Of a DNA stretch of 63,028 bases, positions 1 to 48,508 are shown piece by piece (the stretch's first letter is position 1; every line of letters starts with the position of its first letter). The notes under the pieces were generated by a model that was not told the DNA's origin, searched no databases, and saw only the letters and a list, made by a program, of their open reading frames with translations. A program made the translations under genes and the position numbers. Source of the stretch: an uncultured Thermoplasmatales archaeon (lineage in GTDB: Archaea > Thermoplasmatota > E2 > DHVEG-1); contig CAZQMI010000001.1 of the NCBI GenBank assembly GCA_964594475.1, positions 2,524 to 65,551 of the forward strand. The letters run 5' to 3'.

Positions 1-924
1 ATTACCCGCAACTGTCTTAGCCTTATCAACCTTTCGTTTGGACTTTTCTATATTAGACCGTTTACGAAACTTCTGACCATCCTTAACCTCTACTATAAAA
101 TCGTCTATTATAAAATCTGGTAGATACGTCAAGTTCTCAAACGTCAAAAGAAACGGCTCATACTTCCAGGTTACCCCAATTATATCCAGCAAGAATGCAG
201 TTACGCATTCAGCAATTGATCTAAAAGGAAATGTTCTTCGTAAGTTAATATCCGTATAGTAGCATCTACAAATACTTTTACTACTTGATTTTGGCTCATT
301 CAATCTTCTGGCATACTCTATTCGTTCTTCCTTAGTCATAGAGGCAAACCTCTTCTTCATCTTATCAGACATCATACTTCGAAACTCATCTGATTTGAAG
401 TGATTATGCATATGAGGGAATTTTTTATGCGCCTCTCTTAAAGACTCAGACAACTTACGTTTTCTTTCCGGGTTGTTTTTATATTGTTCCTTTAACATCT
501 TGCTATGTTTTGCTTTCTTCTCTTTAGTCCAAGACTTCTTATTCTTGACTGCTATCATTTTCCTTTTACGTTTACCTTCCTTACTGCTATAAAACTTCCT
601 TACAGAAGCAATCCTTTTATTGTTAGTCTCTTCATTATGACTGGCTTCATGTAGTTTTTTAACAAACTCTGGGTCTTCCCTAAGCCGTTTCATTTGTTTT
701 GAAGCAGCAGCCTTAACATTAGAAGAAAACTTGTTATCCTTCCACTGTTTTAATATCCTGTCTCTATCGCAGTCTCTTTTATAGTCGGAAGACAATGAAT
801 CTTCTCCATACTTTTTCTTATATTCTTTTGTAGTTAGACCGTGTGTTTTAAGATGATTCCAAGTTATCATACTAAACTGTTGGCCACAAACTTCACAGGT
901 TACTCTATAGTAATCATAGGCCAT
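1..924 (-). CDS. Homing-endonuclease-like protein with a MucR/Ros-type C2H2 zinc finger, basic NUMOD-like repeats and a TnsA/Vsr-like PD-(D/E)XK nuclease. The 3' end runs off the window.
   Basis: Absent from the supplied ORF track because there is no stop in the window. Hand translation from ATG at 924 gives MAYDYYRVTCEVCGQQFSMITWNHLKTHGLTTKEYKKKYG... All 308 codons down to position 1 are open. The C-terminal part reads ...WKYEPFLLTFENLTYLPDFIIDDFIVEVKDG (E..PD..EVK nuclease motif). It is a paralog of 57850..59154. Confidence 0.6.
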   Translation of the reverse strand, partial: MAYDYYRVTCEVCGQQFSMITWNHLKTHGLTTKEYKKKYGEDSLSSDYKRDCDRDRILKQWKDNKFSSNVKAAASKQMKRLREDPEFVKKLHEASHNEETNNKRIASVRKFYSSKEGKRKRKMIAVKNKKSWTKEKKAKHSKMLKEQYKNNPERKRKLSESLREAHKKFPHMHNHFKSDEFRSMMSDKMKKRFASMTKEERIEYARRLNEPKSSSKSICRCYYTDINLRRTFPFRSIAECVTAFLLDIIGVTWKYEPFLLTFENLTYLPDFIIDDFIVEVKDGQKFRKRSNIEKSKRKVDKAKTVAGN

Positions 925-1237
925 CTTCCATCTCCTTAATAGCAACAATATCATCTGTTTCTGTTAGTTCATCAAGGCGAACCCACTCATATTCAATTAC
1001 CTTTTCACCTCTTCTAACAAGAAACAGATGGTCCTCCGTAGCCCAGATTACTTCACCTGACTCTAATTCAATTTCAAAACACTCTTTAATACCTCTAAAA
1101 ATAGAGCCATCACATCCCTTATAACATTTTTTATTATCAACATTACGTGATAATACGGTGCAAGGAACACCCTCTAACTCCTTTATTTCTATATCTCCAT
1201 GTTCTTTGGTTGTAACAACGGTATCTTCATCAACACA
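1..1237 (-). mobile_element. Split-intein N-fragment (917..1237) plus a free-standing endonuclease gene, interrupting the terminase-like ATPase gene (a 'fractured gene' arrangement)
   Basis: The host-protein sequence ...SNELHALSQDLVS is followed by CVDEDTVVTTKEHGDIEIKELEG...WATEDHLFLV... This has Cys1 and a TxxH block B. A stop follows 107 aa after the Cys. The endonuclease ATG overlaps that stop (ATGGCCTATGA). Confidence 0.55.
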
Positions 1238-1972
1238 CGAGACGAGATCCTGGGATAAAGCGTGCAGTTCATTAGAACCAGCACGAAGGTTAACTCCACC
1301 TGGAAAATCTACGACAAGACCTTTATAGTCTCTGTCCTCTCTAACGTTGTATATGTCTCTAAAGAAAGGGGACTGCTTCAGGAAACTAATGCACTTTTTG
1401 TAACTACCCAACTGTACATTATCCTTGGTTACGGCATAGATACCGTATGTAAGTGTAGTACCTGCCATCTGGTGGTAAAACTCTTGAGGGTTCTTAAGAC
1501 ATGCCGTACAAGCTATCTTGTATAACAATAGCAACAAAGAGAATACCGTCTTACCTGCACCAATAGGACCAGTAGAGATAACTGTTTTTACTTTATTGTT
1601 GGGGTTAGCACACTCTACGAAGGCTTCTCTCCAGTAAGGAAACAAATCCTTCGTTACAGAGTTCATGTAATAATCGTCGTCTAAGAATTGCTCAGGAGAG
1701 GGAGGCGCTCGGTTGTAATCAATCTCGTGTATAGTCTGCCAGAGAATTCTGTCCTCAGTCTTACATGCCTCTTGCAAAATACGTATAACATACGCACGCT
1801 CTTCAGGATTCAAAGACAACAAGAGATCCTTACCTCGGGACTTCACCTCTTCGAGAAGATTGTTTCTTTTTTCTTCTCTTCTTTTTTGGTACTCTTCCGA
1901 GTTTTGAGCTCTTAGTCTTTTTCTTTCGTTCAGGCTCGACCACCTCAGCATCAACGGGTTGTTCCTCTTCAA
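914..1972 (-). CDS. P-loop ATPase, probably the N-terminal fragment of the terminase large subunit, fused to a split-intein N-fragment
   Basis: Walker A motif VISTGPIGAGKT is preceded by PSPEQFLDDDYYMN..LFPYWREAF. The last 107 aa look like a Hint N-fragment. The start is uncertain: ATG 1972 overlaps the upstream gene by 143 nt, whereas in-frame TTG 1822 follows an AAGGA and would remove the overlap. Confidence 0.55.
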   Translation of the reverse strand: MKRNNPLMLRWSSLNERKRLRAQNSEEYQKRREEKRNNLLEEVKSRGKDLLLSLNPEERAYVIRILQEACKTEDRILWQTIHEIDYNRAPPSPEQFLDDDYYMNSVTKDLFPYWREAFVECANPNNKVKTVISTGPIGAGKTVFSLLLLLYKIACTACLKNPQEFYHQMAGTTLTYGIYAVTKDNVQLGSYKKCISFLKQSPFFRDIYNVREDRDYKGLVVDFPGGVNLRAGSNELHALSQDLVSCVDEDTVVTTKEHGDIEIKELEGVPCTVLSRNVDNKKCYKGCDGSIFRGIKECFEIELESGEVIWATEDHLFLVRRGEKVIEYEWVRLDELTETDDIVAIKEMEDGL

Positions 1973-7923: not shown

Positions 7924-8988
7924 TTAGTCTTCGTCTTTCGTATCTTCTCCGTCTTTGTCATCATCTAACAGGGACGAGCAAAGACTTGACGATTCGTAAT
8001 TCTCTCCAAGCACTGAACTGACAGATAGTTTGTCATGGTTAGCCTTATCGCCTATCAATGACAACATTTGATCATAGATCTTCTTAGCTCTGCGCTTAGA
8101 TACCTTGTTAGCCTTAGCTATAGCTTCAACTTCATCTGGAGACATAAGGTCATGCATCTGTTCAAATATTGATATTTTCTTTTGGAACTTCTCTATCTTC
8201 TTAAGGGACGGAAACCTAACCGAGATACCTCCGAACACAGCCATTAACTTGTTAGTATTCTCTCTTCCAATCAAGTTAGCAATGCGAGGCAAATGAGTTC
8301 TTGAAGCTGAGTCCCATAAAGAAATAGCGTCCACATTTTTATTAAGAAATACTTCAAGAAAAGCAATGCGCAAACACACTCTTAAATGATGGTACAAGAA
8401 GGAGCACTCTACAAGTTCTCTGTCAAACATATAAGATGCCGTAACCGCTAATCGTTTTCGGTTACGTACAAAGATACCTTCCTTGAAAGCCTGTAAGTAA
8501 AAGTGTAATATCTTTTGAGACTCCCTGTCAAAATAGGGTATAGTTGCGTTTCGTATGACTTCTTTTATATCCATATTGTTGTCTAACTGGTCCATCTTTA
8601 GTTCAGACTCACAATCCTCCAAGGAGTCTTCCAACTCGGAATAACTGCCCATACCCCTGATTGATAATTTGTGTATTTGAGACCTAAGAAAGTTGCCTAC
8701 GCATGCTGTAAGATAGCTAAATAATCTGCTACCTCTACCAGGCTCATAGTCATCGAGTATTTGAGGCAACTTGACAACAGCATCATTGATAAGGTCTTCT
8801 GGATCCTCAATGGGATTGGGCATAGACCGGTAGGCTTTAACGGCAAGACTTTTGATTAATGGAAGAGACTTATCCACGATCTCGTGGAAGAGTTTTACGT
8901 CATAAGATTCTTTCCATTTTTCAACCAGTGCATATACTTGTTCCTCATTGAATAGATTTTTGCTTTTCTTTTTTCTTTTACGTGGCAT
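7924..8988 (-). CDS. Phage sigma-factor-like protein
   Basis: Region-2-like EDLINDAVVKLPQILDDYEPGRGSRLFSYLTACVGNFLRSQIHK. C-terminal HTH-like DEVEAIAKANKVSKRRAKKIYDQM. Confidence 0.6.
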   Translation of the reverse strand: MPRKRKKKSKNLFNEEQVYALVEKWKESYDVKLFHEIVDKSLPLIKSLAVKAYRSMPNPIEDPEDLINDAVVKLPQILDDYEPGRGSRLFSYLTACVGNFLRSQIHKLSIRGMGSYSELEDSLEDCESELKMDQLDNNMDIKEVIRNATIPYFDRESQKILHFYLQAFKEGIFVRNRKRLAVTASYMFDRELVECSFLYHHLRVCLRIAFLEVFLNKNVDAISLWDSASRTHLPRIANLIGRENTNKLMAVFGGISVRFPSLKKIEKFQKKISIFEQMHDLMSPDEVEAIAKANKVSKRRAKKIYDQMLSLIGDKANHDKLSVSSVLGENYESSSLCSSLLDDDKDGEDTKDED

Positions 8989-33537: not shown

Positions 33538-36130
<2,593 letters not shown>

Positions 36131-36237
36131 ACCTAATCCCTCCTCACATAACAATTCGATGAATGGCTGCCATCGTCAGGCCTGAACAACCACGCTCAGA
36201 CGACTGGGAGAAATCACCGCTCCCAGTTTCGGCGGTA

Positions 36238-36627
36238 CTAAACAGACTGACTGAGTACCTGGTTGATTCGCGACATCGGAAACTTGTAGATGCTGCCAGA
36301 AGAGTCCTTGGCCAGCACCGGATACTTCCGAGCCCGTGGTTTGATGCCACAGATAGTAAACGACTTGCCTCGGCTGTCAAACGTGCGACCGTAGTCCTCC
36401 GGAGACAGCCCCAGAGCCGGTGCGTACCGATTGAACTCTTCCCGCTCTTTGTCGAAGTCTTCCCCATCAACCGTTGTCGGTGTGGCCAGGATTTTCATCG
36501 TGGCCTCGGTATGGGAGTACCGTATGTTACCACTAACTTCAAACCGCACATCTTCCATACCGATGTTATTCAGAGCCTCGGAAACAGCTTCACGGATTTC
36601 CTTAACTTTCGATTTCGTAAAACGCAT
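36238..36627 (-). CDS. Hypothetical protein
   Basis: 129-aa ORF with a TGTGAGGAGGACGTTATG leader. An antisense 167-aa plus-strand ORF was rejected. Confidence 0.5.
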   Translation of the reverse strand: MRFTKSKVKEIREAVSEALNNIGMEDVRFEVSGNIRYSHTEATMKILATPTTVDGEDFDKEREEFNRYAPALGLSPEDYGRTFDSRGKSFTICGIKPRARKYPVLAKDSSGSIYKFPMSRINQVLSQSV

Positions 36628-37888: not shown

Positions 37889-38509
37889 TTATTTTTTCGA
37901 CTTGCGGACAACCCCTTTCTTCTTTTTGGTGGAAGCCTTCTTGGTTGCCGTCTTCTTCTTGGCGGGAGCCTTCTTAGGTGTCGTTTTCTTTTTAGAAGTG
38001 GTAGCTTTGGCCTTCTTCGTCTTCTCTCCCTTGCTCGGCTTGCTGTTGGCTGAGTCGGCCAGTTCCTTTTCGGCTCTCTCCATAATTTGCTTGCCCTTGT
38101 TGGAGCCACTGCCCCACTTTCCCGTAACCAGAATGCGTATGTAGTCCAGACCCTTGTCCTTGTGTCGCTTAATAAAGTCACCAACAGGGTCATCGCTTTT
38201 CTTGATCGGTTCGTGCGCCGGAATATCAATGTCCTCAAAGTCGTACTTTACTGGTCCGTTCTTACGTCGCTCTTCCCGGGCACGCTGTTTCTCTTCCTGC
38301 TCCTTTTGACGCTTGGCTATCCGGTCGGCCTTCCGCTTCTTCTTATATTCCTTGACGGAGAGGCCAGCCTTCTTGGCTTCCGCAGCTAACCGAGCCTTGC
38401 GCTTCTCTCGCTTCTGCTTCTTGAACTCTGCCACGGTTATGCCCAACTCCTCGGCCTTCTTCTCCAACCGTGCTTGCCGTTTGGCTCTTCGTTCAGCTAA
38501 ACCAGCCAT
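37889..38509 (-). CDS. Highly basic protein with a histone-H1-like C-terminal tail
   Basis: I prefer ATG 38509, after GGAAGGAGG. Duplicated GITVAEFKKQKREKRKA / GLSVKEYKKKRKA. Tail KKAKATTSKKKTTPKKAPAKKKTATKKASTKKKKG. Confidence 0.55.
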   Translation of the reverse strand: MAGLAERRAKRQARLEKKAEELGITVAEFKKQKREKRKARLAAEAKKAGLSVKEYKKKRKADRIAKRQKEQEEKQRAREERRKNGPVKYDFEDIDIPAHEPIKKSDDPVGDFIKRHKDKGLDYIRILVTGKWGSGSNKGKQIMERAEKELADSANSKPSKGEKTKKAKATTSKKKTTPKKAPAKKKTATKKASTKKKKGVVRKSKK

Positions 38510-38941: not shown

Positions 38942-39397
38942 TCATTTCGCAGTTGCTTCTTCCAAAATCTTGACAGCAGATTCAAACGCTTCCTGGACAT
39001 GATCATCGGAAAACCGAAATTTACCGTCACCGCACCGTTGAGATTTGATTACGGCTTCTATCCGGCTGACCAGTTCTTTGTTGTGCATTAAACGGTCGTT
39101 GACCGCTTTTCTCTTGGCGAGTTCTTTCTCGACTTCTCCTTTGTCGAACTCAAGCCGCTGTGCTCTCCACTCCGACGAACCTTTTTCTTCAAAGGTACCG
39201 CTCTTGCGTTTTGTGTAAACGGTCTCCGAGCACCGGTCATTAATAAGTCCGGTTACTTCGTTACTGAGTCCGGTTACGATTTTCGACTTGGTTATTTTCT
39301 TGATGACCTCAGTGTGGTACTGCGTACCGTAATGAGAACTCCGGCTAATAAAGATTTCGTCTCCTACTTTATAGTCATCATATTCTCTCTGTGCCAT
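38942..39397 (-). CDS. Hypothetical protein
   Basis: 151-aa ORF with an AGGAGAC SD. First gene after the ~1 kb non-coding region. Confidence 0.5.
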   Translation of the reverse strand: MAQREYDDYKVGDEIFISRSSHYGTQYHTEVIKKITKSKIVTGLSNEVTGLINDRCSETVYTKRKSGTFEEKGSSEWRAQRLEFDKGEVEKELAKRKAVNDRLMHNKELVSRIEAVIKSQRCGDGKFRFSDDHVQEAFESAVKILEEATAK

Positions 39398-39427
39398 TTC
39401 AAGTCTCCTAAAATAAAAGTGAGTTGA

Positions 39428-39489
39428 TATAAAAACAAGAATGTCTACTCCGACGTCTATAGCTGAGCAAGCCTATAGGCGTCGGGTAG
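39428..39489 (-). terminator. Stem-loop plus T-rich tract
   Basis: CTACTCCGACG (39445..39455) pairs with CGTCGGGTAG (39480..39489), with one bulge. On the minus strand it is followed by ACATTCTTGTTTTTAT. Confidence 0.45.
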
Positions 39490-39622
39490 AAACTCTCAGC
39501 AAAAATTTTCCTATGCGCAGGGTTACTATCTCTCTGGACAGCATCCTGATCAGCCTTGTTAGGCCCACGCACACCGTGGCACCATACTCAACTCCGTTTA
39601 AGACAATCCTGTGACCTCTTTA

Positions 39623-39672
39623 TTCACGGCTCCCGGTCGGCCGTTGTCGTAACGCTTTTATTTTGCCGAGAT
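39623..39672. repeat. ~50-nt direct repeat, copy A
   Basis: TTCACGGCTCCCGGTCGGCCGTTGTCGTAACGCTTTTATTTTGCCGAGAT. Contains the hairpin ACGGC/GCCGT. Confidence 0.9.
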
Positions 39673-39835
39673 CGATATTAGCAGTCACTAAAAATTGTCC
39701 TTACTACTCCATGCTCTTTTCGGAGCTTTCGCATGCCCGATAGGGTTGCGCTCAGGATTAATCCCCTGCCGACTTCAACGGTGGTGTCCCTATTCTAAGC
39801 CAGTACCGTCTTGTTCCCTCACCAGCCCGATTTGG

Positions 39836-39884
39836 TTCACGGCTCCCGGTCAGCCGTTGGCTAAGCGTTTTATTTTGCCGAGAT
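39836..39884. repeat. ~50-nt direct repeat, copy B, 213 nt downstream of copy A
   Basis: TTCACGGCTCCCGGTCAGCCGTTGGCTAAGCGTTTTATTTTGCCGAGAT. About 85% identical to copy A. Confidence 0.9.
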
Positions 39885-40192
39885 TTTTCTTGGTATCGGA
39901 CCGTTCAGAGGTATCAAGAGGACGTGACGTCGATCCCCACCGAACCTGTCTGCGGACGTCCGTGCCCGTAATCCGCCGTATTCGCTAAGGAGGCTCCGTA
40001 TTTTTTGTGAGGGGTTCTCGGCTCCGCTTCCTCATGAGCCCTGCGCCGCCTTAACTTTCCGGTATAAATTTGTAAAAGAGCAGTGGCTTTTTCAACCACA
40101 ATTATTATACTTCTTTTCTCGAGAATCACAAGGGGCAAAATGAGATTTCTCATAAGTTTTTTAGCAGAAATGCCCAAAAAGTCGTAAGTTTA

Positions 40193-40242
40193 GGTAAAAT
40201 AATAGGTTACGAGATCAGAAATTTGGGGTAAAAATTAGGTTA
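40193..40242. repeat. Pair of AT-rich direct repeats: GGTAAAATAATAGGTTA and GGTAAAAATTAGGTTA
   Basis: Read directly from the sequence, at 40193..40209 and 40227..40242. Confidence 0.8.
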
Positions 40243-40288
40243 TACCACTACTGCAGTGAGACTTTTGTCGTCAGAAAAGGCCGAAAAA

Positions 40289-40388
40289 CCACCTATTTTT
40301 CCTATAAAAGGTTGGTTTTTAACGACTTATGGCGTCTCAAAGCCACCACTCTATGGTATAAATGGTTGGTTTTTAGGGGTTTATGGCG
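40289..40388. repeat. Two 46-nt direct repeats with a 54-nt period, iteron-like
   Basis: CCACC..TATAAA(A/T)GGTTGGTTTTTA..TTATGGCG at 40289..40334 and 40343..40388. 34 of 46 positions are identical by hand alignment. Confidence 0.8.
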
Positions 40389-40438
40389 GTTTTTGGTGTT
40401 CTTTTGGACCCCTGCAGCAGACCGTAAAGCGCCCAAAA

Positions 40439-41416
40439 TTACCTAAAAATCGTCCGTATTTTTTGGGTGAGCGACGGTCGGCTACGTCTGCTTAGAAGTG
40501 CCCTAATTTGGTCCTTATTTTGGTTAGGATCGCCTGACTCTAAGACGACTACGTTTACGTCCCGGAGCCCTCGTAAAGCATCGGCTATATCGAAGGTTTT
40601 ATCCGTGGCGTCATCGTCCATCATTATCGTAAACCGGCTGGCCGGAAGTTCCAAAAGAGTAGACAGCTGGTAATCACTAAGTTCCTTGCCGAAGAGGGCA
40701 CAACAATTATCGCCCGTTGTTAATGCGTCCATCATCCCCTCAACGACGATTACTTCCGGATAGTTCTTAACTGAATCATAGTTGTATATCCAACGCTCTT
40801 TTCCGAACTCGCATTCTTCAAGAGACGGGTTTAACTTTCGGTTGTCATTACCGACACCACGTGTAACAAAGTAGACCGGAAAGTTATTTTTGTAAACGGG
40901 GAAGATCAGCATATGTCGGTACCGGCCTTCCATAGCATAGCCTATACGGTGTTGCCTTATCAGTTTATTCGTTACGCCTCTCTTCTTCAGATACCGTTTT
41001 GCCTTACGGGCAAACCATGTATTAGATTCATCCAGGCTCTTATATTCTTCTGGGAGATCTATACTATCCCACTTGGTGCTGGAAAAGATGTCTTCGCTAC
41101 TGAACCGGCTTAGTTTCTCTTCTACTATCTGGGAAATGCTCCTCCCATCTCTTATGGTAGCCTTGCCAAGACCCGAGAGTAAACTCTTGTCGAAGTTAGG
41201 TCCGAATAAGTCTATAAAGAAGGGGGCGAGATAGTTGGCTTTATACTCACAACGGAAGCAGTGAACCAATCCTTTATCGAGATTTACGTATAGCTTCCTG
41301 TAATCTTTATTCCGTCCTATACGTTGCTTACAAAAAGGGCAAACAAATATCAAGTCACCCTTGTTGTTGCTTTCCGGTTCCCCCAGAGTGTTAGTTAATA
41401 TATTCTCGATAGACAT
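40439..41416 (-). CDS. DNA primase (zinc ribbon + TOPRIM)
   Basis: FVCPFCKQRIG...LVHCFRCEY, and TOPRIM motifs VIVVEGMMDALT and IMMDDDATDK. Confidence 0.85.
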   Translation of the reverse strand: MSIENILTNTLGEPESNNKGDLIFVCPFCKQRIGRNKDYRKLYVNLDKGLVHCFRCEYKANYLAPFFIDLFGPNFDKSLLSGLGKATIRDGRSISQIVEEKLSRFSSEDIFSSTKWDSIDLPEEYKSLDESNTWFARKAKRYLKKRGVTNKLIRQHRIGYAMEGRYRHMLIFPVYKNNFPVYFVTRGVGNDNRKLNPSLEECEFGKERWIYNYDSVKNYPEVIVVEGMMDALTTGDNCCALFGKELSDYQLSTLLELPASRFTIMMDDDATDKTFDIADALRGLRDVNVVVLESGDPNQNKDQIRALLSRRSRPSLTQKIRTIFR

Positions 41417-45537: not shown

Positions 45538-46240
45538 GTTGGTCTTTCAGTCTTGGTTCTAATTTCTTCTTTAGCCAAGAATCATCAACTGGTTGTTTGG
45601 TAAGTATAGCTACAACCTTACACAGATGTTCCGGCCATGCTTGAACGCCACTGAAGAACCAATCAATTGGAATGTCTACTACTGACATAAGTTTGTCTAC
45701 TCTTATACCCACACTTTCCAAAGAGTATTCTCTCATTTTTGGATTGTTGCATTTACCATTTGGATCAGTTTTGAAGACACAAGTTTTGCAACCTCTGCAG
45801 TTACCTGCCCAGAGTAAGAAAGACTTCTGTTCCAACTCATCACTGACAGGTCTAACTATTCTCTTCATAGCTGCAGTAAAAACGAAGTCCCACCACTTCA
45901 CAACATAGAACCATTTAGGCTGACGTCTCTCCCTGCCTGTCTTCTTATCTATACCGAGAACTGTTTTTATTGGAGCGTTGAGCGTTTCGAATTTGATGTA
46001 AAAAACAAGAGAGTTAGGAAAAACAGTTTCCAGTCTTTGTATTCGAGGACTACGTGGAGGACAACCACCATTCTTTCCGAAATTTGTGCACTTCTTACAA
46101 GCATTACGAGTAGAGATGAGGTCTCGAGGCACCATTGTAGTAGGTAATTGGAAGAACCCAAAGTCATACAAGTAATCTTTAGGATCCTTCTTATTTACAC
46201 TAATCAGGTTATCTTTTATAATAGTATGTGTTATTTCCAT
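45518..46240 (-). CDS. Predicted metal-binding protein (DUF2284-like)
   Basis: CKKCTNFGKNGGCPP and CRGCKTCVFKTDPNGKCNNP...SLESVGIRV resemble the DUF2284 Cys pattern. I prefer ATG 46240 over the TTG at 46273. Confidence 0.45.
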   Translation of the reverse strand: MEITHTIIKDNLISVNKKDPKDYLYDFGFFQLPTTMVPRDLISTRNACKKCTNFGKNGGCPPRSPRIQRLETVFPNSLVFYIKFETLNAPIKTVLGIDKKTGRERRQPKWFYVVKWWDFVFTAAMKRIVRPVSDELEQKSFLLWAGNCRGCKTCVFKTDPNGKCNNPKMREYSLESVGIRVDKLMSVVDIPIDWFFSGVQAWPEHLCKVVAILTKQPVDDSWLKKKLEPRLKDQHERYEK

Positions 46241-46570
46241 ATAGTAAGCACTCACGTAATAGTGTGGTAACAAGAGATAAGAACTTCATACCGTTCAAAT
46301 GTGGTGTGTGTTTTTAGTATTAAAAATCAAGTAAAATACATAGCGGAAACGTCTTCATGGAATTTCTTCAGTGTGAAAAATCGTATGGCATTGATCTTAC
46401 GATCAAAAGACAGGAGAGATAAAACGACACACGCAGGATCTTGTTTCCTCGCGTGCACGCACGCACGTAGAGAGTAACATTCGTTACTCTTCTTGTTATT
46501 ATTATATTATTCAGGAAACTTGAATGAGATAACTTATAACTAATAAATAATAACCTGAATTAAATAAAAG

Positions 46571-46632
46571 TTGAAGGTCGATGTTGAACGTGTACAGGCG
46601 GACATTGAACGTGGCACGGTGAACGTTGAACG
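46571..46632. repeat. Cluster of 4-5 (T/G)TGAACG boxes
   Basis: TTGAACG at 46584, 46605 and 46626; GTGAACG at 46619; a degenerate TTGAAGG at 46571. Spacings are 21, 14 and 7 nt. The cluster sits next to an AT-rich tract (46491..46570) bounded by the inverted repeat ATTCAGG/CCTGAAT. Confidence 0.8.
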
Positions 46633-46933
46633 ATGTGACTGGAAGAATCTGGAAAAAGTCCTGTGGAATTGAAGAACCAAGATAATGCTATCGCAAAGTG
46701 AGAGTTTGCAACGTGGGTTATAAAGTTTCTTCGTGTCCGTTTTGCAAGATTATTTTAACTCAGCACTGTTCTTTTCAAACACAACCGAAGATAGATAAAA
46801 TGTTATTGCCAGCTAACTTTACGGATTTTGTTTGTTTGGGGTTGTTTGCTTAGTGTTAGGTGAGCCATGCGGAGTTTGGTCCGCAGTGGTGGTCAAGTTT
46901 ATTTCTTTTTATTTTTTGTCGGGAGGTTTGCTT

Positions 46934-47290
46934 ATGGCAGCCAAGAAGAAAAGTAGCAAGAAGAGCAGCAAGAAGTCCAAAGATACAGGGACTCGGAAGA
47001 TTGACATCGTGAGAGCGATTGCAAACAAGCTGGATTACAGCAAAAACGATGTCAAAGCAGTTATTGATGAGCACCTCAACCTGATTCATGATAAGCTCAT
47101 GAACTGCGAAGAAGTCAGCCTATCCGGTGTAGGAAGCTTCAAGGTACGCAATCGTAAAGCACGTACCGGCTTCAACCCAATCACCAAGGAAAAGATTCCG
47201 ATTCCGGCTCGGCCTGCAATCAAGTTCAAACTTTCCAAGGACATTCGCAAGGCCCTCAAAGAAAAAACCGTAGAGGGAGAAGAAGAATAG
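46934..47290 (+). CDS. HU/IHF-family DNA-binding protein with a lysine-rich N-terminal tail
   Basis: LSGVGSFKVRNRKARTGFNPITKEKIPIPARPAIKFKLSKDIRKAL is a classic HU arm. A GGGAGG SD precedes ATG 46934. The track ORF starts further upstream, at 46832. Confidence 0.85.
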   Translation: MAAKKKSSKKSSKKSKDTGTRKIDIVRAIANKLDYSKNDVKAVIDEHLNLIHDKLMNCEEVSLSGVGSFKVRNRKARTGFNPITKEKIPIPARPAIKFKLSKDIRKALKEKTVEGEEE

Positions 47291-47316
47291 AGCTTGATTA
47301 GCTGCTCTTTATTACT

Positions 47317-47396
47317 GGCAAGTGGAGCCCGCTGTTCACCTTCTCTCGACCGGGAAGATACTTCGAACTTTCGCTCCACTTGCCTTTTTTCTTTTT
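47317..47396 (+). terminator. Long-stem terminator or attenuator after the HU gene
   Basis: 12-bp perfect stem GGCAAGTGGAGC/GCTCCACTTGCC with a 44-nt loop that has an inner CCCG/CGGG stem. It is followed by TTTTTTCTTTTT. Confidence 0.7.
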
Positions 47397-47409
47397 ACCA
47401 GGAGCTATA

Positions 47410-48132
47410 ATGTCGGAAGAATCTAAAGTTGATTCTATAAGTGTTGTTGGTAGTGTTGATTCTTCAGAAAAGACCAGAGAGGATTTGCTCAAAGAACTTT
47501 CAGCACCTTCGTGCGTCACTAAGCCTCCGAAGGTAACCATCTCATCTCGTAAGGGGGATGTCCCTGACTCCGTAAAGAAGACTATTTATATAGGTGGGGA
47601 ACAGAGCAAAGACACCAAACAAAAGCCAGTACCAGAGCCCACCCAAGAACCTCAGGAAGAACCACCAGATATACCGGCACCCAATGATGTCAGTAGCTAT
47701 GATATCCCGTCTTCTAAGGACTTTGAAGCACCAACACAGCCACAACAAAAAGAGTCTAAGATTGAAACGAAACCAAAACCTGATGCTATAGAACCATCAG
47801 AGCCAAAAACTGAATCATCTGTAGAACCAGACTTCCAAAACAAGCACCAAATCATATTGTCCGCTACTGACACAGACGCTTCTCTCGAAAGAAAGAATAA
47901 GATATTCAAAAAGCAAAGCAATTTCAAAGTAGATGTGGAGTCAGATGTTAATCTTGGATTTAATCCTTACTCAGATATTTGCTCCACTCTTGGCTTTCTT
48001 ATCCAAGGATTGCACGAAGATCTACGAAGTCTTGAGTCTGGTAGTTATAATTTCAAACTTCACATAGAGAAGGTGGACCATGCCGAAACGAAAGAAGATA
48101 TCCAAGAAAGACACAAACCAGAAGCAGACTAA
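47410..48132 (+). CDS. Hypothetical protein, Pro/Glu/Lys-rich in the middle
   Basis: An AGGAG SD precedes ATG 47410 (MSEESKVD...). Confidence 0.5.
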   Translation: MSEESKVDSISVVGSVDSSEKTREDLLKELSAPSCVTKPPKVTISSRKGDVPDSVKKTIYIGGEQSKDTKQKPVPEPTQEPQEEPPDIPAPNDVSSYDIPSSKDFEAPTQPQQKESKIETKPKPDAIEPSEPKTESSVEPDFQNKHQIILSATDTDASLERKNKIFKKQSNFKVDVESDVNLGFNPYSDICSTLGFLIQGLHEDLRSLESGSYNFKLHIEKVDHAETKEDIQERHKPEAD

Positions 48133-48508
48133 GGACAAAGGAAGAGAAGACTTGTTTACCACAGAGAACCTCGTACGATATCTTGTAGACCACAAGCAGT
48201 ACCAAGTACGAGAAGCACGAATGATAGTACGGGACTTTCTTGAAGTAATCGATGAACAACTTATTCAAGGTAAGGATATTCTCTTCAAAGGGCACTTTTC
48301 TATACGAAAGAAATCTCTCAACTCCCGTATTGTATCTCATGGTATAATACGTAAGAATAATCCAACCATACCTCTTTCAGATCGTATTATACTACCTCGC
48401 AGATACTCATACAAGGTTTATCCATCTTCGAACCTTAAAGAAGATATGAAGAAGCACAAGCAGTTAAAGTCGGAAGACTTTGGTACTATGTTGTCAGACC
48501 AAAAGTGA
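48080..48508 (+). CDS. Divergent second HU/IHF-like protein
   Basis: LVRYLVDHKQYQVREARMIVRDFLEVIDEQLIQGKDILFKGHFSIRKK follows the HU helix-helix-beta pattern. N-terminus MPKRKKISKKDTNQKQTKDKG. Confidence 0.45.
   Translation: MPKRKKISKKDTNQKQTKDKGREDLFTTENLVRYLVDHKQYQVREARMIVRDFLEVIDEQLIQGKDILFKGHFSIRKKSLNSRIVSHGIIRKNNPTIPLSDRIILPRRYSYKVYPSSNLKEDMKKHKQLKSEDFGTMLSDQK

Follow-up and report, generated by a model that had tools for sequence, protein, structure and literature searches.

Anti-termination built on the boxA element and the Nus factors is known from ribosomal RNA (rrn) operons, the nut sites of lambdoid phages, the leaders of CRISPR arrays and a few cellular mRNAs. In Escherichia coli the rrn element takes the form CAC-UGCUCUUUAACAA-UUUAUC, and in the nutR site of phage lambda the boxB hairpin reads AGCCCU-GAAAA-AGGGC (PMC2724277, Table 1). 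Neither boxB nor boxC is required for rrn anti-termination, which acts solely on Rho-dependent terminators (PMC2724277). A gamma-proteobacterial boxA consensus, GYTCTTTAANA, and other Nus-factor targets outside rRNA have been described (Baniulyte et al. 2017, PMC5725501), as have boxA elements in CRISPR-array leaders (Stringer et al. 2020, as cited in bioRxiv 10.64898/2026.07.09.737519). Such boxA-dependent Nus complexes shield long non-coding transcripts, rRNA and CRISPR arrays among them, from Rho (PMC12360218; bioRxiv 10.64898/2026.07.09.737519). Here, we describe a comparable arrangement in a phage genome represented by a 63,028-nucleotide (nt) stretch of contig CAZQMI010000001.1 (hereinafter the window), lying in the 1041 nt (39398-40438) that separate the stop of an open reading frame (ORF) for a DnaG-like primase (40439) from the start of a minus-strand gene for a 151-amino-acid (aa) protein (39397). 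We posit that this gap houses a minus-strand transcription unit behind an rrn-type anti-termination leader and, judging from its sequence, rate the reality of such a unit as a little better than even. On the best reading, the unit would specify an untranslated, Nus-factor-protected early transcript, serving as a long non-coding RNA (ncRNA), a leader or both.

Two further primase lineages, L001 and L003, each 72% identical to the window primase and represented by short contigs, were found among 5.8 billion protein clusters. The sequence available downstream of the primase amounts to 490 nt in L001 and 258 nt in L003, and L001 is the only divergent relative usable for comparing the promoter and boxA block. 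Two other contigs, L026 and L012, derive from a 99%-identical strain in one sequencing run (SRR15425353). The elements of the proposed unit are as follows:

40131-40104, minus strand: candidate sigma70-type promoter TTGTGA-16 nt-TATAAT (promoter scan, 10/12 matches)
40099-40083, minus strand: boxB-like hairpin GUGGUU-GAAAA-AGCCAC (fold of -7.7 kcal/mol), with GGTTGAAAAAGCC identical in L001
40082-40061, minus strand: rrn-type boxA UGCUCUUUUACAA (40082-40070), preceded by CAC and followed by the spacer AUUUAUACC (match to E. coli rrn)
39498-40060, minus strand: GC-rich, ORF-free body of about 0.55 kb, with no family, coding signal or excess fold stability
40014-40040, minus strand: hairpin GGCUC-N11-GAGCC, then GAGAAC (hereinafter H0; by eye, in two sequences)
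39836-39884, minus strand: repeat module copy 1, AUCUCGGCAAAAUAAAA ... ACGGCU-GACCGGG-AGCCGU-GAAC (repeat search)
39623-39672, minus strand: repeat module copy 2, with the same two conserved blocks and a different linker of 8-9 nt (repeat search)
39655-39867, no strand assigned: 213-nt unit, one repeat period, missing from a natural variant (contig L026)
39497-39427, minus strand: intrinsic terminator with an interrupted stem of about 25 bp (39497-39437), then GUUUUUAUAU (-29.9 kcal/mol, z = -4.86, 0/200 shuffles)
39480-39501, minus strand: 5′ arm of the terminator, UGCUGAGAGUUUCUACCCGACG, complementary at 21/22 positions to codons 2-8 of the mRNA of ORF 24810-25910

The leader appears to be nearly a copy of the E. 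coli rrn boxB-boxA anti-terminator, which predicts that it would bind NusB/NusE and confer resistance to Rho. Its boxA, UGCUCUUUUACAA, matches the E. coli rrn boxA UGCUCUUUAACAA at 12/13 positions, with the CAC and ACAA-UUUAU flanks also matching, and agrees with GYTCTTTAANA at 10/11 positions, a gamma-proteobacterial consensus that may not be the host's. The degenerate 13-mer YGCTCTTTWACAA occurs once in the window (126 kb over both strands), at this very site. Among the 13 sites in the window that lie within one mismatch of GYTCTTTAANA, only that at 40082 directly abuts a GAAAA hairpin, and just three GAAAA-loop hairpins with a 5-bp stem are present in the window. When set against the E. coli K-12 rrnB P2 leader CACTGCTCTTTAACAATTTATC, the window sequence CACTGCTCTTTTACAAATTTATAC shows one substitution and one inserted A; the L001 version is CACCGCTCTTTTACAAAATTATAC. 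The boxA begins 22 nt past the conserved TATAAT and is followed by about 0.6 kb lacking a coding signal, and the conserved -10 hexamer lies 5 nt upstream of the boxB-like hairpin, a layout also seen in rrnB P2. The order of promoter, boxB hairpin and CAC-boxA-spacer is shared with the target of the rrn anti-termination complex (rrnTAC: NusA/B/E/G, SuhB and S4), and long untranslated RNA lies downstream in both. In contrast to the rrn system, the element described here is phage-encoded, its downstream RNA is not rRNA, no boxC is recognized, and the boxA reads UUUU where that of rrn has UUUA. The E. coli rrn boxB loop is also larger, the phage boxB loop being that of lambda nutR.

Over about 110 nt, the promoter-boxB-boxA-spacer block shares 79% identity with L001 and includes two stretches of 13-16 nt, over boxB and boxA, without a single difference; neither the intergenic DNA flanking the block nor the body is alignable with L001. 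The promoter hexamers are kept in L001 (TGTGAT / TATACT), their spacer having diverged. Overall, the coding DNA of L001 is 68% identical to the window, and the intergenic DNA has diverged except for two minus-strand blocks. For an ORF running across the leader, similarity to L001 is confined to the 20 codons in which boxB-boxA is written; hence, the conservation of the leader is not protein-coding. Moreover, one U-G pair of the boxB-like hairpin would turn into C-A on the plus strand, and as the pairing works only on the minus strand it supports the minus-strand assignment.

The same hairpin and U-rich tract might alternatively do no more than end the helicase-primase operon, or a small RNA encoded upstream, as a plain terminator, the likeness to boxA being fortuitous. 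A terminator scan does flag the hairpin, and the U-rich tails of terminators resemble boxA, as the 13 one-mismatch sites in the window illustrate. Nevertheless, we regard this reading as quite unlikely: the stem is weak (6 bp, 3 of them G-C, -7.7 kcal/mol) and the U tract is interrupted, the identity with E. coli rrn reaches the CAC before and the ACAA-UUUAU after, neither of which a terminator needs, and the -10 hexamer conserved 5 nt upstream follows the rrnB P2 layout.

We accordingly picture the action of an rrn-type leader as follows. Host RNA polymerase would initiate at the sigma70-type promoter, with a predicted transcription start near 40097, and the first ~40 nt of the RNA would present the boxB-like GAAAA hairpin, the CAC, the boxA UGCUCUUUUACAA and the AUUUAU spacer. 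By analogy to rrn operons and CRISPR leaders, the boxA would recruit NusB/NusE (S10) and with them NusA, NusG and SuhB. The Nus-loaded polymerase might then become Rho-resistant over ~0.6 kb of untranslated RNA that would otherwise be a Rho target. It would transcribe the body, ~0.55 kb of untranslated and rather G-rich RNA with two 50-nt repeat modules, and reach the intrinsic terminator at 39497-39427. An rrn-type complex does not carry polymerase past intrinsic terminators, so most transcripts should end there, releasing a discrete RNA of ~0.67 kb. Expression of the 151-aa gene and its operon would depend on read-through, by a fraction of transcripts or, with a boxB-binding factor of phage origin, by all of them. 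The likeness to the boxA of CRISPR leaders lies in its position at the head of a long non-coding transcript and in its predicted role in countering Rho; here, however, the element belongs to a phage and not a cell, and there is no array, there are no cas genes, and no matching repeat is found in 185,579 species genomes.

The gap itself is non-coding and most likely transcribed. It is the largest ORF-free interval between same-strand genes in the window; only the window edge and the divergent region 46274-46831 (558 nt) leave longer stretches uncovered, and two further apparent gaps are occupied by small back-to-back ORFs. The initial annotation had seen no convincing ORF here and had called 39480-40060 GC-rich, and both statements are borne out. 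The longest ORFs in the gap measure 97 aa (plus strand) and 87 aa (minus strand), a Pfam search of all gap ORFs returned zero matches, and a log-likelihood scan based on the phage's own codon usage lacks in the gap the frame contrast present in the flanking genes. A tblastx comparison of the gap with the remaining window detected no similarity, and a six-frame pseudo-protein search against 5.8 billion proteins gave no match among the candidates listed. A protein-coding gene, intact or decayed, finds no support in codon bias, Pfam, tblastx or the ORF comparison with L001, all of them negative; ARAGORN found no tRNA or tmRNA. The GC content of 39480-40060 is 52.5% as compared to 42.9% for the window, placing it in the top 0.3% of same-size windows, and the adjoining 33-39 kb already averages 49%. 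All ORFs of at least 100 aa within ~6 kb of the gap, and nearly all in the whole window, lie on the minus strand. The initial annotation had left the strand of transcription unresolved; the minus strand can now be assigned from the conserved promoter, the rrn-type boxB-boxA leader and the minus-strand intrinsic terminator, elements from which we also infer transcription itself. The leader, the most telling of these features, sits at the margin of the segment described initially, and the structured-RNA interpretation given there is upheld only in part.

Beyond the leader, the body offers few handles. The initial annotation had proposed a structured RNA and an Rfam scan that would include the large phage-associated families GOLLD and ROOL; no match was obtained in the gap with Rfam 15 at gathering thresholds, and at E <= 10 nothing credible emerged there either, the best E-value within 39300-40500 being 0.73, to unrelated families. 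The fold of the whole RNA has z = -2.4, owed mostly to the terminator, and whole-RNA folds do not discriminate between the two strands. The long-range pairings noted initially are present as 8-mers at 39515/40039 and 39815/40007, two of the positions having been off by 2-9 nt, each with a probability of ~1% in the folding ensemble; by our estimate chance alone would give ~3 perfect 8-bp pairings in 650 nt. The perfect palindromes are likewise there, once each: CGGACGTCCG at 39953, GACGTGACGTC at 39921 and GGATTAATCC at 39755. In H0, the L001 counterpart reads ACCCC-N13-GGGGU followed by GAGAAC, with three pairs altered on both sides, a comparison made by eye on two sequences; automatic alignment puts this hairpin out of register, and the RNAalifold run rests on two sequences only. 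Two further resemblances were noticed by eye and post hoc, both on the minus strand: UAUGG-hairpin-CCUAAC at 39556-39585 is similar to the 11-nt GAAA-tetraloop receptor, and GCGAAAGC at 39725-39732 is a GAAA tetraloop hairpin.

These observations bear on the proposal, close to that of the initial annotation, that the body is a large, specifically folded functional RNA of the ornate RNA or ribozyme class. The rrn leader also chaperones RNA folding in rrn operons, and a GC- and G-rich, ORF-free segment behind an rrn-type leader would suit such a role, as would the compensatory changes in H0 and the tetraloop hairpin GCGAAAGC with its receptor-like UAUGG-hairpin-CCUAAC, the latter pair resting on inspection by eye after the fact. 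With GOLLD, ROOL, HEARO and self-splicing introns the region shares several hundred nt of ORF-free phage sequence of raised GC content, but it differs from them in giving no covariance-model match, and neither folding energies nor comparison with L001 point to a conserved fold. The lack of any Rfam match at E <= 10, local folding z-scores of ~0, a whole-RNA z of -2.4 that is mostly terminator, long-range helices at ~1%, an L001 body whose first 134 nt are not significantly alignable and an internal 213-nt deletion that circulates in nature together make a folded RNA of this kind improbable.

The two 50-nt repeats reported initially are confirmed: the copies lie 213/212 nt apart, are ~86% identical with two 1-nt indels, and have no further copies in the window, where 0 are expected by chance. 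Their similarity ends at ~53 nt, so that one 213-nt unit is not a duplicate of the other. This excludes a tandem duplication of such units and removes the basis for two tandem RNAs of ~210 nt, as only ~50 nt are duplicated. On both strands, shuffled sequences fold as well as the modules do. Contig L026 tracks the window from 45799 to 39868, passes through the shared 17-mer AUCUCGGCAAAAUAAAA of copy 1 and then continues with 13 nt specific to copy 2; L012, from the same run, starts inside copy 2. The chimeric k-mers in L026 mean that molecules without exactly one 213-nt repeat period exist, and about a third of the body is thus dispensable or variable. From the contig breaks at both repeats, as arise at de Bruijn-graph contig ends, the deleted and full-length forms probably coexist in SRR15425353.

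Several known repeat-bearing systems were considered and rejected. A CRISPR array, mini-array or repeat-mimic RNA would call for several repeats of 24-48 nt with spacers of 26-72 nt and a match to a host array; here, two 50-nt repeats lie 213 nt apart, and the repeat core gives only single chance matches in GTDB and none in IMG/VR. A type III toxin-antitoxin system would have ~36-nt tandem repeats just ahead of a terminator and a ToxN/AbiQ-like gene, but the repeats here are not tandem, and the 151-aa protein has no ToxN/AbiQ match (it shows a sub-threshold match to a phage ProQ C-terminal-like domain, E = 0.007). As for a diversity-generating retroelement, retron or integron cassette, no reverse transcriptase or integrase was found among the ~50 larger ORFs screened, a set that left out about a dozen ORFs, mostly in 48.5-63 kb; further, the repeat copies differ by indels and at all four bases, not at adenines only.

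The modules also invite a plus-strand interpretation, in which small RNAs of ~230 and ~440 nt would start from an extended -10-like TGATATAAA (39425-39433) and end at the modules (hairpin then UUUUAUUUU) acting as terminators. On the plus strand each module is indeed an ACGGCU-N7-RGCCGU hairpin followed by a U-rich run, and copy 2 has a U-G pair there that becomes C-A on the minus strand. Yet the scan yields no plus-strand promoter, 12-13 nt separate the stem from the U run, the module folding z is ~0, and 40 or more flanking genes are all on the minus strand, leaving this reading with very little probability. A role at the level of DNA, as a replication origin, a set of protein-binding repeats or a recombination site beside replication genes, could draw on the adjoining helicase and primase genes, the direct repeats, the several perfect palindromes, the AT-rich flank with tandem repeats and the natural recombination between the repeats. 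Set against these are the absence of a GC-skew inflection at 40 kb, the presence of only two 50-nt repeats 213 nt apart, unlike iterons, and the fact that the conserved part is the promoter/boxA block and not the repeats; we deem such an element very unlikely, if marginally less so than plus-strand RNAs.

At the distal end, the terminator-like hairpin noted initially on the minus strand proved to be strong (-29.9 kcal/mol, z = -4.9) and is the sole exceptional folding window in the gap. The ribosome-binding site (RBS) of the 151-aa gene lies ~20 nt past its end, which leaves no room for a separate promoter of that gene. The match of the terminator arm to ORF 24810-25910, which encodes a 366-aa protein with no family match, has a blastn E-value of 8.7e-4 and is equalled in the window by 1/400 dinucleotide shuffles. 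On the sense side, a copy comprising the 3′ arm, U tract and RBS region (39461-39401) aligns with the first 54 nt of the same ORF (25911-25858; 0/1000 shuffles). By its sequence, the terminator appears to have arisen when the 5′ end of this ORF (~25 nt; 25885-25911) was duplicated in inverted orientation, and it could be a recombination relic or the seed of a trans-acting antisense interaction. An energy-based ranking of RNA-RNA targets (duplexfold) does not single out ORF 24810-25910. The 3′-end or terminator-proximal, trans-acting antisense small RNAs of bacteria and phages share with this element a 21/22-nt complementarity to the first codons of an mRNA near a U-tailed intrinsic terminator; by contrast, the complementary segment here is mostly buried in a -30 kcal/mol stem, forms part of a 0.67-kb RNA, and may owe its match to a duplication.

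The same duplicate counts in favor of viewing the gap as decayed protein gene(s) or the remnant of a mobile element, as the initial annotation had also entertained: at the 3′ end, the first ~54 nt of ORF 24810-25910 recur in diverged form, together with the inverted copy that forms the terminator, and the GC content is atypical for the phage. A mobile element as such is unsupported: the phage, plasmid and E. coli collections and GTDB hold no counterpart, and there is no Pfam match, no frame-specific codon signal and no tblastx similarity within the window, making it the least probable of the explanations considered.

More serious is the possibility that the unit is purely a leader or timing device, in which an anti-terminated polymerase runs into the 151-aa operon, the terminator is a gate opened by a phage N-like factor, and the body is foreign or decayed filler. 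Two genes downstream lies a candidate for such a factor: 37889-38509 (minus strand) encodes a very Lys/Arg-rich 206-aa protein with its true start at ATG 38509, preceded by GGAGG, and without family matches, whose N-terminus MAGLAERRAKRQARLEKK resembles the arginine-rich RNA-binding motif of the lambda N type. The 151-aa gene itself carries a 21-nt in-frame indel (39257-39277), giving 151 aa in the window as compared to 144 aa in L012. With lambda nutL/nutR the locus shares a boxA, a boxB hairpin whose GAAAA loop is closed by a U-A pair, and a position after an early promoter and before a terminator gating downstream genes; it differs in the reversed order, boxB lying 5′ of boxA with no spacer between them, in the lack of an N homologue and in not belonging to a lambdoid phage. 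In favor of a pure leader, the boxB loop is identical to that of lambda nutR, the RBS of the 151-aa gene follows the terminator too closely to admit a promoter, the body is unconserved in L001, partly deletable, devoid of a structure signal and unlike the phage average in GC, and the Lys/Arg-rich protein begins with MAGLAERRAKRQARLEKK, like an arginine-rich motif. However, the boxB-boxA order is that of rrn and not the boxA-spacer-boxB of lambda, no N or Q homologue was detected, Pfam and PHROGs giving no N-family match for the ten ORFs nearest the gap, the candidate arginine-rich protein is encoded downstream of the very gate it would have to open, and a tightly packed genome would be an odd place for 0.55 kb of filler. 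On balance, we consider a pure leader a tenable but still unlikely explanation.

Returning to the minus-strand unit with its rrn-type leader, several observations weigh against it and deserve to be gathered here. Sigma70-like matches in the surrounding 20 kb are no commoner than in shuffles. At position 8 the boxA has U where the gamma-proteobacterial consensus calls for A, the sequence past the spacer lacks a GU-rich, boxC-like element, no counterpart of E. coli UGUGUGGG being seen, and the terminator scan also flagged the boxB-like hairpin plus UGCUCUUUU as terminator-like. In the body, sliding 150-nt folding z-scores of the GC-rich core are ~0 on both strands, the available first 134 nt in L001 are not significantly alignable (the global score is reached by 25/300 shuffles), what is a U-G pair in the repeat-module hairpins of the plus strand becomes C-A on the minus, about one third of the sequence is deleted in the natural variant L026, and a specific RNA function is unproven. 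Conservation in relatives accordingly extends to the promoter/boxB/boxA block, which is kept in L001, and not to the body, which is without significant similarity. Within the reading as a transcription unit, the evidence at hand cannot separate a functional ncRNA from a leader with filler: the lack of body conservation or structure together with the deletion favors the latter, and the antisense match together with a dedicated terminator favors the former.

Between the primase and the promoter, three further elements are seen:

40270-40388, minus strand: two tandem repeats of ~50 nt (40285-40334 and 40339-40388), each an A/U-rich hairpin then a U run, 38% GC (repeat and fold analysis)
40235-40262, minus strand: small hairpin CACUGCAGUAGUG, then an extended -10-like TGGTATAAC and CTAA (alignment of three primase lineages)
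40140-40153, minus strand: palindrome ATGAGAAATCTCAT directly upstream of the -35 (L001 alignment by eye)

The tandem repeats are poorly conserved in L001 and L003 and possibly represent a weak end of the helicase-primase operon. The hairpin/TGGTATAAC block, whose exact 15-mer AGTGGTATAACCTAA is unique in the window, is kept in all three primase lineages, L003 included, with varying loop bases, and may act as a promoter. The L001 version of the palindrome, GTGAGAATTATCAC, has its outer pair changed from A-T to G-C, and the element is a possible operator or hairpin. At 2131-2150 of L001, the palindrome upstream of the -35 reads TGTGA-GAATTA-TCACT, which by eye is close to the CRP-type consensus, TGTGA-N6-TCACA; the window palindrome TATGA-GAAATC-TCATT bears a weaker likeness to a CRP-type site than that of L001.

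None of the collections searched contains a close relative of the phage, and a PHROG family is lacking for most of the ORFs screened. The gap has no blastn match in GenBank phages, PLSDB plasmids or E. coli genomes. No relative was found in IMG/VR by protein search or by alignment, and pattern scans of that collection for the repeat core, the A-rich block, the boxB-boxA leader and the boxA-spacer gave no matches or chance matches only. A pattern scan of JGI metagenomes returned the L001 contig only, and a scan of GTDB genomes chance matches only. More distant primase relatives (26% identity) lack the gap. For the 151-aa protein, a single close relative was found, belonging to the same near-identical strain, along with four remote ones, none of an informative family. 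Stretches free of SNPs are not longer in the gap than outside it; hence, strain polymorphism says nothing about selection. The phage carries a T4-style module for replication and nucleotide metabolism, with RecA/UvsX-like, gp32-like, PolA and SbcCD-like genes, and a putative sigma-like factor of its own.

Other features of the window were noted in passing. A type II hammerhead ribozyme at 36161-36234 (minus strand; Rfam RF02276, 43.8 bits as compared to a gathering threshold of 37, E = 1.2e-5) nearly fills the 83-nt gap between ORFs 36238-36627 and 35732-36154, with no L012 strain differences inside it. The gene at 7924-8988 (minus strand) encodes a 354-aa protein with weak matches to Sigma70 region 2 and the Mor activator, which may be a phage sigma-like or late-transcription factor. 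At 914-1972 (minus strand), an ORF shows a sub-threshold match to an intein splicing domain (residues 261-344, E = 4.7e-5). At 22071-24646 (minus strand), a serine hydroxymethyltransferase gene adjoins a gene for a 438-aa thymidylate-synthase-like protein, a pairing that, as inference only, suggests a modified-pyrimidine pathway for phage DNA. The ORF-free divergent region 46274-46831 (558 nt) separates the minus-strand block from a short plus-strand island (46832-48508) that includes a PHROG 'DNA binding protein', and with this region goes the top sigma70-like hit of the promoter scan, TTTACA-17-TATAAT at 46194-46222 (plus strand).

An rrn-type anti-termination leader in a large, non-lambdoid phage, heading 0.6 kb of untranslated RNA, is a variant of a known regulatory device, and the ncRNA behind it may evolve quickly. 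A bolder proposal, to which we give low probability but more than to the folded RNA, is that it founds a new class of phage long ncRNA that uses host boxB-boxA anti-termination, consists of modular, repeat-bounded units gained or lost by recombination, and acts in trans by pairing with the start of the ORF 24810-25910 mRNA and/or by using its boxA to titrate NusB/NusE away from host rRNA synthesis. The 3′ segment of the ncRNA and the translation start of ORF 24810-25910 form a concrete, testable pair in this regard. Should the body be filler, the finding would shrink to an unusual but ordinary regulatory leader. The boxA motif offers a sequence handle for locating other phage ncRNAs or leaders, and hints that the host is a bacterium with an rrn boxA resembling that of E. 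coli. If confirmed, the arrangement would mean that virulent-type phages, too, recruit the host rRNA transcription complex against Rho or to time their delayed-early genes.

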